24,366 nucleotides of DNA, taken from positions 1 through 24,366 of IMG/VR virus record IMGVR_UViG_3300014208_000125. One strand, given 5' to 3'. Position 1 is the stretch's first letter; the number at the start of each line of letters is the position of its first letter. The position numbers were made by a program, and so were the translations under genes. Below, one piece after another: positions 963 to 21,837 of the stretch. The DNA is from a virus. Its lineage: Duplodnaviria > Caudoviricetes. The notes below the pieces were generated by a model. That model searched no databases. It saw only the letters and a program-made list of their open reading frames with translations, and was not told where the DNA came from.

Positions 963-1422
963 GTTTATTCTTATAATATTTTATTTTCTCTTCATAAGGA
1001 AAATCCCAACCGTCTTTCTGATTCAATACGTCAAATTCGTGGTCTATTTGTTCAGTATATTTACTCCACATTTTTACCTGATATTTTCTCCAATTACCTG
1101 ATAAATTAATATTACAGTGATAACATTGGCAATTTACATTTCGTTCATCAAAGAATAGATATTTTTTACATGTTGCACCTGTTCTATAATGTCCTGCTTG
1201 AGCTGGCCATGTTTTTTTATCACAAGTTATGCAAATATATTTATCTCTTTCTCTGATAAACTTTGAGAATAATTTCCATAAATCTTCATGGAGTTTTGTT
1301 TTGGTCGGCAGTTTTTCCTTTTTTACTTTCTTTACCTTGATTATTTTCTTTTTGGATTTAATTTTTAGTTTAAAAGGTTTCTTCTTGAATCCGCTACGTT
1401 TTAATTGAGATGTTCGTTTCAT
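943..1422 (-). CDS. ninG: NinG/Rap-like recombination endonuclease
   Basis: FSKFIRERD..CITC..QAGHY..FDERNVNCQCYHCN motifs typical of NinG. Confidence 0.85.
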   Translation of the reverse strand: MKRTSQLKRSGFKKKPFKLKIKSKKKIIKVKKVKKEKLPTKTKLHEDLWKLFSKFIRERDKYICITCDKKTWPAQAGHYRTGATCKKYLFFDERNVNCQCYHCNINLSGNWRKYQVKMWSKYTEQIDHEFDVLNQKDGWDFPYEEKIKYYKNKLEANEN

Positions 1423-6704: not shown

Positions 6705-6741
6705 AAAACAAACGCCACCCGTGGAAGTGGGTGGCGTTTTT
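6705..6741 (-). terminator. intrinsic terminator in the 5' leader of the replication operon (potentially bidirectional)
   Basis: AAACGCCACCC / GGGTGGCGTTT 11-bp stem, 8-nt loop, T-rich tails on both strands. Confidence 0.75.
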
Positions 6742-6835
6742 CTATAACTCGGTAATCTATACTACTCTTAGAATTATAGCAAATTGACCTTCCACAATCA
6801 ACTGCTTATCAAAATATTTCAAACTCGTATCTATA

Positions 6836-7182: not shown

Positions 7183-7253
7183 GAAGATTTAGTTTAGTGG
7201 TAGGACAATAGTCTCCAAAACTATTGGCAGAGGTTCGATTCCTCTAATCTTAG
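7183..7253 (+). tRNA. trnW: tRNA-Trp (CCA)
   Basis: Full cloverleaf: D stem GTTT/GGAC, anticodon arm ATAGT-CTCCAAA-ACTAT, T arm AGAGG-TTCGATT-CCTCT, G73; G1:A72 mismatch; CCA not encoded. Confidence 0.92.
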
Positions 7254-8631: not shown

Positions 8632-8640
8632 TGGTATAAT
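8632..8640 (+). promoter_or_regulatory. extended -10 promoter TGGTATAAT
   Basis: Intergenic, upstream of terS; identical 9-mer at three other intergenic sites. Confidence 0.7.
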
Positions 8641-10262: not shown

Positions 10263-10271
10263 TGGTATAAT
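10263..10271 (+). promoter_or_regulatory. extended -10 promoter TGGTATAAT
   Basis: Intergenic, 11 nt before the ATG at 10283. Confidence 0.7.
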
Positions 10272-12190: not shown

Positions 12191-12412
12191 ATGAGCCCAT
12201 GAGGTAAATCAGTTTCTAAAAACATCAAGGAATTATATCAAGATAATTTAAACACTGGAGTTGCAAGGGGAGCAGGAGGTAAACCAAGAAGTAGAGATCA
12301 GATTGTAGCAATCGCTTTGAGTTCGGCAGGAAAGAAAAAAACTGTTCCATTCAAAGGTAATTCAAAAGAAGGTAAAAAATATCGTTCACCAATACATACG
12401 TTTTATGCTTAA
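12191..12412 (+). pseudogene. small basic phage protein with in-frame TGA at codon 4 (readthrough or nonsense allele)
   Basis: MSP*GKSVSKNIKELYQDN...GKPRSRDQIVAIALSSAGKKK...; no later in-frame ATG. Confidence 0.7.
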
Positions 12413-12417
12413 ATAAA

Positions 12418-12555
12418 ATGAATAAGGAAAATCGTATAAAGGAATTTAAAGATATGTATAATAAATTGAATGATCCTGTAGAGATTCAACGAAATATACA
12501 TAGAGAGAAGATTAATAAAATGAGAGAAGAGAAGAGAAGCGATGCGGGTTTATAA
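12418..12555 (+). CDS. hypothetical protein, 45 aa
   Basis: MNKENRIKEFKDMYNKLNDPVEIQRNIHREK...; AT-rich start context. Confidence 0.5.
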   Translation: MNKENRIKEFKDMYNKLNDPVEIQRNIHREKINKMREEKRSDAGL

Positions 12556-13126: not shown

Positions 13127-13135
13127 TGGTATAAT
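13127..13135 (+). promoter_or_regulatory. extended -10 promoter TGGTATAAT
   Basis: Intergenic, upstream of ORF 13158 and the scaffold/capsid genes. Confidence 0.7.
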
Positions 13136-13157: not shown

Positions 13158-13379
13158 ATGGCAAGAAATAAAAAAACAGAGGAAGAAGTTGTAGTCTCTA
13201 AAAAAGTTGTTGATGATTTTATGGATTTACCTACAGTTCCTAACTATAAGTCCGCTTCTGTATTTAGCGATAACGGAACATTCATAAGAACATACACAAA
13301 AGAAGTACACGGAGAGAATTTTGTTGAATTAGCAAATGGTTATGCAAACAAAATCAAAGGAAGTATGAAAGTACTTTAA
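13158..13379 (+). CDS. hypothetical protein
   Basis: 73-aa ORF between the promoter and the structured leader. Confidence 0.75.
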   Translation: MARNKKTEEEVVVSKKVVDDFMDLPTVPNYKSASVFSDNGTFIRTYTKEVHGENFVELANGYANKIKGSMKVL

Positions 13380-13393
13380 AAATTAACTAATAA

Positions 13394-13520
13394 ACTACTA
13401 CAAACTTGGGAGTACCAGCTGGTCTCCGAAGCCATTTATGTAGTAGTCTATGGTTTCGTAGACTAACCGGTACTCTCAAAGTATCGGTTTTTGCGTATTA
13501 TAAATGAGTCAATGACTCGT
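13394..13520 (+). promoter_or_regulatory. structured leader / candidate attenuator before scaffold and capsid
   Basis: 30-position imperfect stem, 9-bp loop pseudoknot, mutually exclusive terminator hairpin, then hairpin ATGAGTC-AAT-GACTCGT. Confidence 0.7.
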
Positions 13521-13542
13521 TAAACAAAAAAAATAATTCCAA

Positions 13543-14145
13543 ATGGAAAACGAAATTAAAGAGTTAGTTGCCGAACAGACAACACTCAATGAAGTAAATG
13601 AGGAAGAAGTCCGAGCTAAAGTTATCAGTGAGTTTGGTTTTGACGAAGTAGATGACATCGAACGAATTGATAAATTAGTAGCCAAAGAGGTAGAGCAGAA
13701 CAAGAGATTATCTTCGGCTATTGGACAGAAAATCAAGTACCGCAAGGAAGTAGAAGAGCTAAAGGGCAAAACTACACCTGCGATTCCTCCAGTCCCTGTA
13801 AAGTTTGATACAGGAGACCTTGATAAGAGAGTAGATGAGAAGTTAGAGAAGAGAGACCTTGATTCACTAGAATATCCAGAGGAAATCAAAACTGAAATCC
13901 AAAGATTAGCTAAAATGCAAGGTATTTCAGTAAAGCAAGCCTCACGTGATCCTTATATTGTTTATAAAATAACGGAACACGAGAAAACGAAAAAAGTTGA
14001 AGACGCAAGTATCTCCCGAAATCATAAGTCAATTTCCAAAAAAGATTTTAACTTTGATTCTCCTCCAGATGTGGACATAACCACAAAAGAAGGACAAGAC
14101 ACTTGGGACGCTTACAAAAAAGAAATGGTAAAACAAGGATACTAA
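13543..14145 (+). CDS. capsid scaffolding protein (putative)
   Basis: Acidic coiled-coil 200-aa protein immediately upstream of the capsid gene. Confidence 0.75.
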   Translation: MENEIKELVAEQTTLNEVNEEEVRAKVISEFGFDEVDDIERIDKLVAKEVEQNKRLSSAIGQKIKYRKEVEELKGKTTPAIPPVPVKFDTGDLDKRVDEKLEKRDLDSLEYPEEIKTEIQRLAKMQGISVKQASRDPYIVYKITEHEKTKKVEDASISRNHKSISKKDFNFDSPPDVDITTKEGQDTWDAYKKEMVKQGY

Positions 14146-14165: not shown

Positions 14166-15395
14166 ATGAGTTATACAGCTAACAGTTTGTCATACTTAAA
14201 CCCATCATTTTGGGCTAAGGAGGCACAGCGTTCTTTGTTCGTAGATAACAAAGCTATGGCTATTGCTAATACGACATTGAGAAATTTAGTCGCAGGTGAA
14301 GGCGCTACTGTCTACAGGACAATAGTTTCTTACCCAGCTTCTGCTACCTATGTCCCTGGTACAGACATTACAAATACTTCCGTTACAAGCTCAAGTGAGA
14401 CATTAACAATCTCAACTTGGATTGCTTCGATGGTACATGTTGATGACACAGAACAGAGACAGTCTATTATTAAATTGGGAACAAACATCTCTAATAAGAT
14501 GATGAGAGACCACAATAACAGAATTGAGCAAGCTATTTTGGCAGAAGTAAGTAATGCAGGACACAGTATTGATGACGGAAATGTAGGTGGTACAGCTGGT
14601 AATAATGCCGTTGTAAACACAAACACAGTTCCTATGTTCTTTATTGCAGCCGACACAAAGTTGGATGCTGCAGATGCTCCAAAGGCAGGAAGAACAGCTG
14701 TAGTAGGTGGACACTTCTTAGGTCAATTGAAACTCCAGCAAGCCGCTAGAGCCACAACTTTCGGAGATGGTGTTAATACAAGAGGAGTTGTTGCTAATAT
14801 GTTCGGTTGGGACATTCTTTACTCAAATAACCTTCCATATTCCGCAGTATTAACTATTGCAACAAACCCAACAGCCGCTGATACAGTTACAATCGCAGGT
14901 GTAAAATTTACCTTTAAGGCTGCTCTTGCTGCCGCTGGTGATTTGCATATTTGCGATTCCGCAGCAGAAACAGTAGCAAATATGGTTGTTGCATTAAATG
15001 CTCCAGCCACATCCATCACTGAAGCTGGTTCGGGTGGATACACAGCTCTTTCTTCAGATAATGTATTTATCTTGAGAGATAAGAGGAGAATTTCAGCTGT
15101 TGCTACAAGTGCAACTGTAACAACTATTTCCGGTTATGGAGATATCGTAGTTTCAGAAACTCTTTCAGCCGTTGCTGATGTATGGTCTGCACAAAAACAA
15201 ACATCTTTGTTCTGCGTAAAAGGATGTATTGATATGATTGTTCAGATTCCTCCAAAGATTGAAGTTACAAGAGACCAGAATCAATTTGCTGATATTGTAA
15301 AGTCATTACTTGGTTATGGAAAGAAAACATACGCCGATGGTGCAAGGGAGATGGTGTCCGTCGCCATTGATGCTTCTACAAGTGATTGGAAATAG
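14166..15395 (+). CDS. major capsid protein (HK97 fold, P22 coat-like) with an insertion domain
   Basis: P.FWA N-terminus, GVVANMFGWDILYSNNLP, ADIVKSLLGYGKK; follows the scaffold. Confidence 0.88.
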   Translation: MSYTANSLSYLNPSFWAKEAQRSLFVDNKAMAIANTTLRNLVAGEGATVYRTIVSYPASATYVPGTDITNTSVTSSSETLTISTWIASMVHVDDTEQRQSIIKLGTNISNKMMRDHNNRIEQAILAEVSNAGHSIDDGNVGGTAGNNAVVNTNTVPMFFIAADTKLDAADAPKAGRTAVVGGHFLGQLKLQQAARATTFGDGVNTRGVVANMFGWDILYSNNLPYSAVLTIATNPTAADTVTIAGVKFTFKAALAAAGDLHICDSAAETVANMVVALNAPATSITEAGSGGYTALSSDNVFILRDKRRISAVATSATVTTISGYGDIVVSETLSAVADVWSAQKQTSLFCVKGCIDMIVQIPPKIEVTRDQNQFADIVKSLLGYGKKTYADGAREMVSVAIDASTSDWK

Positions 15396-16586: not shown

Positions 16587-17285
16587 ATGAATAGTAATAA
16601 AGGAGTAAAATTAACAGAAGAACACAAAAGAAATATTGGTCTTGCCAATAAGGGCAAACCTGCTCCTAATCGTAATTTTTGGTTAGGTAAAAAACGTTCT
16701 AAAGAAACGAAAGAAAAAATCAGTACTACAAAAACTGGTTCAAAACTTTCTACTGAACATAAAAGAAAGATTGGGTTGGCATCAAAAAAATGTTGGGGAA
16801 ACCCTGAATATTCTAAGAAAATGAGTGAATCTCGGTTAGAACATATTGTTACAAAGGAAACAGCAGAAAAAATTTCCAAAGCCAACAAAGGAAAGAAAAG
16901 ACCCATTGGTTTTGTCGCGCACAATACTTTTAAGAAAGGTTTTACTCCGTGGAATAAGAATAAAAAAAGTTTAATATCACCAGAAGAACATCATAATTGG
17001 AAAGGTGGGATTACATCTGAAAGAGAAAAAATTCGTAAGAGTTTAGAAAATAAAATATGGATTAGGGCTGTGTTTGAGAGAGACAATTTCACTTGTCAAA
17101 AATATGGAGAAACACACGGTGGTTTGAATGCCCACCATATTCAAAACTTTTCTCAATATCCGGAGTTTCGTTTTGCAATAGATAACGGAATCACATTGAG
17201 TAAAAAAGCTCACGAAGAATTTCACAAGAAATATGGATATAAAAATAATAGTCGTGAGCAATTATTAGAATTTATAAATAGTTAA
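16587..17285 (+). CDS. free-standing NUMOD3-HNH homing endonuclease
   Basis: Repeated 'EEHKRNIG..NKG' / 'KETKEKIS' NUMOD3-type motifs, NWKGG, VFERDNFTCQ, AHHI..NGITL..H. Confidence 0.88.
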   Translation: MNSNKGVKLTEEHKRNIGLANKGKPAPNRNFWLGKKRSKETKEKISTTKTGSKLSTEHKRKIGLASKKCWGNPEYSKKMSESRLEHIVTKETAEKISKANKGKKRPIGFVAHNTFKKGFTPWNKNKKSLISPEEHHNWKGGITSEREKIRKSLENKIWIRAVFERDNFTCQKYGETHGGLNAHHIQNFSQYPEFRFAIDNGITLSKKAHEEFHKKYGYKNNSREQLLEFINS

Positions 17286-21828: not shown

Positions 21829-21837
21829 TGGTATAAT
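21829..21837 (+). promoter_or_regulatory. extended -10 promoter TGGTATAAT
   Basis: Intergenic, 10 nt before the ATG at 21848. Confidence 0.7.

Follow-up and report, generated by a model that had tools for sequence, protein, structure and literature searches.

We conclude that the leader in front of the scaffold-like and capsid genes of this phage record belongs to a portable, strongly co-varying RNA family without an Rfam entry, which, judged from its sequence, would work like a pyr-type attenuator joined to a boxA of the rrn/nut type. Its three overlapping helices are mutually exclusive, and they co-vary among relatives. We consider it highly probable that the leader is an attenuator of one polarity or the other. 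The whole reading that we favor, to which we give an even chance, is a default-off attenuator that is opened when a Nus-type complex, probably together with a phage factor, covers the first strand of the leader.

Helices, folds and covariation of the leader

The window, by which we mean the whole stretch of 24,366 nt that was analysed (the 24-kb phage record IMGVR_UViG_3300014208_000125), encodes a terminase (phrog_2, PF03237), a 588-aa portal-like ORF that is named by its position and has no family match, a 200-aa scaffold-like ORF (13543-14145, plus strand), likewise without a family match and named for its place ahead of the capsid gene, and the major capsid protein (14166-15395, plus strand; phrog_267, E = 1.7e-19). 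Small ORFs lie between the portal-like and scaffold-like ORFs. An extended -10 promoter-like site (13127-13135, plus strand), recognized from its sequence, stands ahead of a 73-aa ORF and is the likely start of a transcript that would include this ORF, the switch and the head genes. Of 39 switch leaders, 14 have such a site in the 750 nt that precede the scaffold start; of 389 background windows, 11 do. Ahead of its late gene blocks, the window has four extended -10 sites that are identical (8632-8640, 10263-10271, 13127-13135 and 21829-21837), and the late genes include an HNH/NUMOD3 gene (16587-17285).

All elements of the switch lie on the plus strand. Strand A (13394-13402) forms the 5' side of a predicted anti-antiterminator helix and is the exact complement of strand A' (13439-13447), which sits in the 14-nt loop (13436-13449) of a long stem. 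The 5' arm of this stem, the predicted antiterminator (13406-13435), pairs with the 3' arm (13450-13479) at 27 of 30 positions, including three G-U pairs, and the last 13 nt of the 3' arm double as the 5' arm and loop of a predicted intrinsic terminator (13467-13492). The terminator, which is exclusive with the long stem, has an 8-bp stem (13467-13474 with 13480-13487, one G-U), a 5-nt loop and a short U-tract of only five U (13488-13492); a simple terminator scan of the plus strand did not list it. A sequence-only reading of this DNA had described the two arms, the exact complement of A in the loop, the exclusive terminator and a 73-aa ORF ending 14 nt upstream of A, at 13379, and all of these are found where it placed them. 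The parts missing from that reading are the boxA and an inner hairpin (13405-13431), which belongs to the minimum-energy fold and pairs 13409-13412 with 13424-13427, 13414-13416 with 13421-13423, and 13405-13407 with 13429-13431 around an AGCU loop.

The region from 13380 to 13530 folds far better than chance (z = -6.31; none of 200 shuffles folds as well). Its minimum-energy fold consists of A:A' enclosing the hairpin of the 5' arm, followed by the terminator, and not of the long stem. Fold energies are -33.6 for A:A' with the inner hairpin and terminator, -36.8 for the long stem and -21.8 for A:A' with the inner hairpin alone. On prefixes ending between 13447 and 13460, when most of the 3' arm has not yet been made, A:A' has a probability of 1.0; on prefixes ending between 13475 and 13492, the long stem wins at equilibrium, so that any "off by default" behavior rests on kinetics and termination needs a kinetic trap. 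Across the family, when each of the 35 copies analysed is cut off at the end of A', its minimum-energy fold always contains A:A', and all 35 are predicted to have a hairpin of -7 to -19 kcal/mol in the stretch that separates A from A'. The computed barrier to refolding into the long stem is 14.1 kcal/mol in the window with A free and 4.1 kcal/mol with A blocked, from a calculation without pseudoknot toeholds (13432-13435 with 13450-13453), which would lower the barrier. The family medians are 18.1 and 4.4 kcal/mol, and the barrier is higher with A in 35 of 35 copies, a result that is partly built in, since the copies were selected for A/A' runs of at least 7. Blocking A lowers the terminator probability in the window from 0.81 to 0.0. 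Of the 35 family copies, 16 have a terminator probability above 0.5 with A free, and 26 have one below 0.05 once A is blocked; in 19 copies, the terminator is not favored even with A free, and in 5 its probability stays above 0.5 despite the blocking of A.

The sequence-only reading had drawn A and the loop as a pseudoknot with the long stem. An H-type pseudoknot on an intact stem was rejected, as the 3-nt linker cannot span 30 bp: even fully stretched, it permits A:A' together with at most 23 to 24 of the 30 bp, excluding at least the basal 6 to 7 bp, and the linkers in the family measure -1 to 8 nt against stems of 23 to 41 bp. The predicted terminating fold is thus nested, not pseudoknotted. 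A transient partial pseudoknot with the apical few pairs may occur as an intermediate. The tips of the inner hairpins are often self-complementary (AGCU, UGCA, GGCC or GAUC), as in the window (13417-13420) and in loci L001, L012, L022, L038, L056, L067, L085, L095, L098 and L136, which would allow kissing dimers; non-palindromic tips also exist.

Related loci were fetched from three collections by alignment of the scaffold-like protein, of which there are 174 homologs. The scaffold start could be assigned in 136 loci and not in 6, giving 94 distinct leaders, of which 92 were long enough for analysis. Of these 92, 54 have a long stem that overlaps with a terminator followed by a U-tract. Forty-four non-redundant copies share less than 80% identity with one another and 44 to 69% with the window. 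In 33 of the 44, the 21 nt upstream contain a run of at least 8 Watson-Crick pairs with the copy's own loop, a frequency far above that in cross-pairings of A and loop from different copies (38/1892) or in shuffles (83/8800), and the 35 copies with a run of at least 7 have 32 different A cores. In an alignment of 25 sequences, 91.2% of the cells in the long stem are paired, double changes occur at 20 of its 21 pairs, and its covariation score is 0.80, against 0.27 when shuffled. The terminator has a score of 0.417, where shuffling gives 0.264 and none of 500 shuffles does as well. Since the presence of both helices was the ground for selecting these sequences, both sets of counts lean upward. 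For A:A', an independent check used an inner-hairpin pattern that specifies neither A nor A', together with an RNA model, R1, that holds no A:A' pairs. The pattern gave 17 viral matches; the 12 that also score with R1, three of them already known loci, all show A/A' runs of 8 to 13 nt, and the other five show runs of 3. The earlier proposal of a terminator/antiterminator switch in front of the scaffold and capsid genes, for which covariation across scaffold-gene leaders had been suggested as a check, is therefore strengthened by covariation of all three helices. Outside one subfamily, which keeps a tip of 3 bp, a bulge and an AGCU-type loop, the inner hairpin varies widely in sequence.

The switch is patchily distributed on a quick tree of the scaffold-like proteins (19 changes over 91 rows), and it is not confined to scaffold-like genes. 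Complete copies also precede portal-like genes (L043, 2965-3095; L312), other scaffold-like genes recognized by look and position (L311, L313, L314 and L325), and HNH-type and other genes (a set that includes L317 and L321). Some complete switches follow unrelated ORFs or stand directly behind promoters, without the 73-aa ORF. In L312, L315, L326 and L247, the switch lies just behind an extended -10 site, and its boxA scores no more than 3.2 bits, with the A/U-rich spacer-like stretch kept. Neither boxA nor the upstream ORF is indispensable to the switch, and it is mainly for this reason that we posit a further, probably phage-made, factor. When the RNA model was run on 61 genomes around the Paceibacterota-related genome G001, with 55 candidates scored per genome, it found only the known phage contig. 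In L007, L008 and L009, HNH/NUMOD3 genes are inserted before the switch or within the capsid gene.

The boxA-like site, the upstream ORFs and the probable host

A boxA-like site with the start of an A/U-rich spacer, a putative site for NusB-NusE and NusA, lies at 13371-13386 on the plus strand. With 13.5 bits, it is the top matrix score in the whole window on both strands, and it agrees with the boxA consensus given in PMC5725501 at 10 of 11 positions. The same motif follows the promoter in the rRNA leaders of relatives of a Paceibacterota bin. By a matrix of 14 distinct rRNA-leader sites from Paceibacterota-related genomes, picked with a pattern written after the phage motif had been seen, 18 of 35 switch leaders score at least 8 bits. 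This score is reached in 37 of 3500 shuffles, at the ends of 3 of 262 other genes and in 8 of 152 windows taken from non-switch leaders. In 11 of the 35 scaffold-gene copies, boxA scores below 5 bits. The distance from the boxA core to A is 12 to 23 nt. We rejected the possibility that the motif is a -35 box, as no -10 element was seen at 17 nt in the copies inspected by eye. In the rRNA transcription complexes of Escherichia coli, as outlined in PMC8632103, NusB-NusE sits on boxA, and NusA, SuhB and S4 keep hold of the RNA that directly follows; binding of NusA to the spacer after boxA is described in PMC2724277.

NusB was found in 39 of 41 genomes around the Paceibacterota bin and Rho above cut-off in none of the 41, all of which are incomplete. 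In the absence of a Rho match among these candidate host relatives, boxA is unlikely to act against Rho there. In the two genomes examined for it, G001 (L145:1483-2394) and G002 (L144:1009-1908), NusB carries a C-terminal NUDIX fusion, and the NusB frame is about 300 aa long in all 39 matches among the relatives of G001. An RNase III-like gene, named from its sequence, adjoins nusB in both G001 and G002.

We infer that the phage host is a member of the Patescibacteria. A Shine-Dalgarno-like 4-mer precedes none of the 22 window ORFs of at least 110 aa, and the anti-Shine-Dalgarno sequence is missing from all 11 readable 16S rRNA ends among relatives of the Paceibacterota bin, a twelfth (L159) being out of register and left aside; these two observations together fit such a host. 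Among nine genome-bin matches, one is named Paceibacterota and two more are bins of 0.7 to 0.9 Mb; the remainder carry unrelated labels (Acidobacteriota, Pseudomonadota, Ignavibacteriota and archaeal bins). Few phages of Patescibacteria have been characterized, as is remarked in the preprint 10.1101/2024.03.08.584096. In the window, a small basic ORF (12191-12412) is broken by an in-frame TGA at codon 4; TGA is the stop codon of 5 of 24 long ORFs, and the phage encodes a tRNA with a CCA anticodon (7183-7253).

The 73-aa ORF (13158-13379, plus strand) is predicted to encode a small beta-beta-alpha-beta domain, and its stop codon lies inside boxA, 14 nt before A. It has no Pfam or PHROG match. 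Sixty homologs occur in the fetched loci, and a separate homolog search with the protein returned only itself. The AlphaFold model has pLDDT above 90 in ten-residue blocks from residue 31 to the end. Fold searches gave no clear match, with nothing in the PDB by Foldseek at E 0.001; the resemblance to the AP2-titled chain 6sy0_A is weak (Z 2.1, rmsd 2.6, 39 aligned), and the best Z overall is 3.0. Homologs precede 36 of 44 switch leaders and also 15 of 38 leaders without a switch, which, with the complete switches that have no such ORF, speaks against this ORF, a candidate regulator in the sequence-only reading, being a regulator that the switch needs. Nor could a small gene be tied to the switch by its distribution in loci with and without it (98-aa ORF, 22/25 versus 7/25; 73-aa ORF, 22/25 versus 11/25), given that detection favors close relatives. 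A 45-aa basic ORF (12418-12555) after the portal-like gene is present in 38 of 50 loci, 23 of 25 with the switch and 15 of 25 without it; from its sequence, it is probably helical and is a candidate RNA-binding peptide. The small late ORFs that were scanned gave no family match and no homolog of N.

Two further RNA elements deserve mention. A small hairpin with a C-AAU-G loop (13506-13518, plus strand) is a separate conserved element that occurs with or without the switch. Of 93 leaders, 70 have a GC-rich small hairpin among their final 58 nt, 5 to 35 nt before the scaffold start, and in 47 of these 70 its loop is C[AAT]G, C[AAAT]G or C[TAT]G; within the window, such a hairpin precedes 2 of 18 genes, the scaffold-like gene included. 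Its sequence and position suggest that it is likely to be a translational operator, and it could be one of the GP20/P22 type. For comparison, the autoregulation of the P22 scaffold is reportedly a leader-type control of a head gene. Another hairpin motif, with a conserved tail, is seen in L015, L029, L034, L055, L113, L129 and L137, and the tail also occurs at 13516-13525 in the window.

The other element is the replication leader on the minus strand, which the sequence-only reading had linked to the late switch through a shared logic of upstream segment and loop pairing. There, a strong terminator hairpin (6710-6739) stands before the replication gene, and its loop is matched by the complement in an upstream 7-nt segment (6789-6795), 49 nt away. 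The arrangement is the inverse of the late switch, as the segment targets the loop of the terminator. Among 47 distinct replication leaders, the window included, 11 have a terminator-like hairpin and 7 have a 7-nt complement; six of these 7 form one near-identical group with a different, weak hairpin. No copy of the window's architecture was found in the 46 other distinct replication leaders. Given this inverse targeting and the lack of copies elsewhere, a shared RNA-switch strategy is not supported.

Proposed mechanism and alternative explanations

In the mechanism that we favor, A:A' and the inner hairpin would form directly after the transcription of A' and ahead of that of the 3' arm, as predicted by folding. 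This anti-antiterminator would tie up the 5' arm and leave the 3' arm free to close the terminator, and polymerase would by default stop before the head genes, at about 13492-13495. The kinetic trap could arise from the ring that A:A' makes around the 5' arm, through which the polymerase-tethered 3' arm would probably be unable to wind three turns. If A were covered, only the weak inner hairpin would be left, and the long stem would zip up and absorb the 5' arm of the terminator. Nus factors at boxA, or a partner, might reach and cover A, and a late product of the phage would presumably set the timing. A bolder version, which we think rather unlikely, holds that phages of Rho-less Patescibacteria use the rRNA Nus complex of the host, with its NusB-NUDIX fusion, as a local switch-thrower and have no antiterminator protein of their own. 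The Nus complex at boxA would itself cover A, and capsid genes would be read only when Nus factors are free and the trailing ribosome is gone, tying virion production to the ribosome-making state of the host.

The opposite default must be weighed against this. As in a PyrR-type system, the long stem would normally win, and a protein, such as a repressor made early or scaffold or capsid protein in excess, would stabilize the fold of A:A' and inner hairpin and so cause termination, with boxA as an accessory. PyrR itself works by stabilizing the terminating fold, as outlined in PMC7430163. The long stem is indeed stabler by 15 kcal/mol before the terminator has been made, 12 of 35 copies favor the read-through fold by a margin above 5 kcal/mol, and the subfamily tip of 3 bp, bulge and AGCU-type loop is a possible binding site. 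Barriers of 13.5 to 28 kcal/mol would, however, hold the terminating fold without any protein, the inner hairpin has a variable sequence outside the subfamily, and a boxA 12 to 23 nt before A is left unexplained; we regard a protein-stabilized off state as unlikely. Quite unlikely, in our judgment, is an arrangement like that of lambda nut and N, in which boxA with the A:A' and inner hairpin fold recruits an N-like phage protein that makes polymerase terminator resistant along the late operon, the long stem serving later for processing or for disarming the site. The order of boxA, spacer and hairpin is that of nut as described in PMC2724277, and the 45-aa basic ORF (23 of 25 switch loci, 15 of 25 others) could be thought of in this role, but a conserved stem of 23 to 41 bp that overlaps a terminator would not be needed, copies without boxA exist, no N homolog appeared among the small late ORFs scanned, and the extended -10 sites that several late blocks possess lower the need for processive antitermination.

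Three further explanations each appear very improbable to us. Control by an RNA in trans, with the logic of P4 CI or c4, would have the A' loop of the read-through RNA, or an antisense RNA, capture A in a positive feedback. A co-varying second A of 7 to 8 nt does follow directly on the U-tract in 5 of 35 copies (L004, L026, L065, L086 and L094; 30 of 1190 cross pairs reach at least 6 in the control), resembling the seqA and seqC that flank CI as presented in PMC4825925, and it could lock the read-through fold by pairing with the loop. In L033 (~321-331) and L107 (~1248-1261, minus strand), moreover, copies of A of 11 and 14 nt directly precede the start codon (AUG) of an early gene for 63 aa that is homologous in the two loci, but these amount to one homologous event. 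The window has no downstream copy of A, 12 long records show no general second copy of A or A', and an antisense sigma-70 promoter matching at least 10 of 12 positions is found in 0 of 35 copies, against 42 of 1050 shuffles. Coupling to translation, raised in the sequence-only reading for the 73-aa ORF, supposes that a ribosome finishing the upstream ORF either covers A or is in competition with the loading of Nus factors. In 28 of 33 copies, 14 to 23 nt separate the upstream stop from A, and in 18 of 24, the stop precedes the core of boxA by 0 to 5 nt; in the window, it lies inside boxA. A terminating ribosome reaches roughly 10 to 12 nt, however, which puts 14 nt or more at or beyond its limit; the distance to A is more uniform from boxA (sd 3.3) than from the stop (sd 5.3), the transcripts of promoter-proximal copies contain no upstream ORF, and in a compact genome any leader will follow closely on a stop codon. 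Finally, there might be no regulated termination at all, the long stem being an RNase III site or a stabilizer and the other pairings side effects. With 27 of 30 positions paired, the stem here has a length of about 30 bp, which is suitable for RNase III; rRNA leaders have a boxA followed by an RNase III helix, and G001 and G002 have an RNase III-like gene beside nusB. This leaves unexplained both the covariation of A:A' and the terminator with U-tract that overlaps the 3' arm in 54 of 92 leaders. Cleavage may be an added layer.

The timing of late genes in phages of Patescibacteria is little known, and the switch offers a concrete, testable mechanism for it. If Nus factors flip the switch, they would have a new job, the steering of a local fold and of intrinsic termination in bacteria that seemingly lack Rho, and this would be a clue to why reduced genomes keep NusB. 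A switch of about 130 nt with swappable A/A' pairs is also a possible regulatory part.

Comparison with known systems

At the gathering score, the sole Rfam match in the window is a tRNA, and 20 related loci have none, so that the Rfam scan suggested as a check for the sequence-only reading produced no family for the leader. Matches by e-value below the cut-off, to Plasmid RNAIII (24.1 of 60 bits) and to miRNA models, were rejected. In the literature that we searched, we found no description of such a late-gene mechanism in phages of Patescibacteria, and a pyr-type attenuator and an rRNA-type boxA were not found together. The survey of PMC10690425, as far as it is drawn on here, reports 8,495 candidate RNAs from IMG/VR, 1,241 of them with possible terminators, as well as GP20 leaders. 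The switch motif may be among its unnamed candidates, and the part of its supplementary data that was compared gave no match. Like GP20-a (RF02991), GP20-b (RF03003) and the six further GP20 leader candidates of that survey, the switch is a structured leader before head-assembly genes. Unlike them, it also precedes portal-like and other genes, with the six candidates compared by description only; no Rfam match to GP20-a or GP20-b was obtained, and the downstream protein has no Pfam GP20 match.

The CI RNA of P4 resembles the switch in having a loop complementary to an upstream segment (seqA), with a downstream one (seqC) matched in 5 of 35 copies here, and in an output by premature termination. 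Phage P1 c4 follows a similar logic. The phage switch differs in that an intrinsic terminator is predicted to be set in cis, with no evidence of a processed trans RNA; the window has the upstream target alone, and there is no Rfam match. With lambda nut, a boxA-spacer-boxB site used with N, and with the rrn boxA, which assembles NusA/B/E/G, SuhB and S4, the leader shares a boxA, an A/U-rich spacer and a hairpin, and the site in the window, at 13.5 bits and 10 of 11 positions, agrees with the boxA consensus. Unlike both, the phage site abuts a local switch with its own antiterminator, and some copies do without boxA. Unlike lambda, no N homolog was found in these loci, and the likely hosts have no Rho match and a NusB-NUDIX fusion.

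The closest likeness is to the pyr attenuators of Bacillus subtilis, as outlined in PMC7430163, which have three exclusive helices in the same order, with a 5'-most fold that blocks the antiterminator and permits termination. By sequence, covariation and predicted folds, the leader has this architecture of overlapping, mutually exclusive helices, and it has no Rfam match to the PyrR binding-site family. In contrast to the pyr attenuators, the anti-antiterminator of the phage switch closes on the loop of an antiterminator of 23 to 41 bp with a boxA beside it, the switch precedes structural genes, and its default is predicted to be off, by kinetics.
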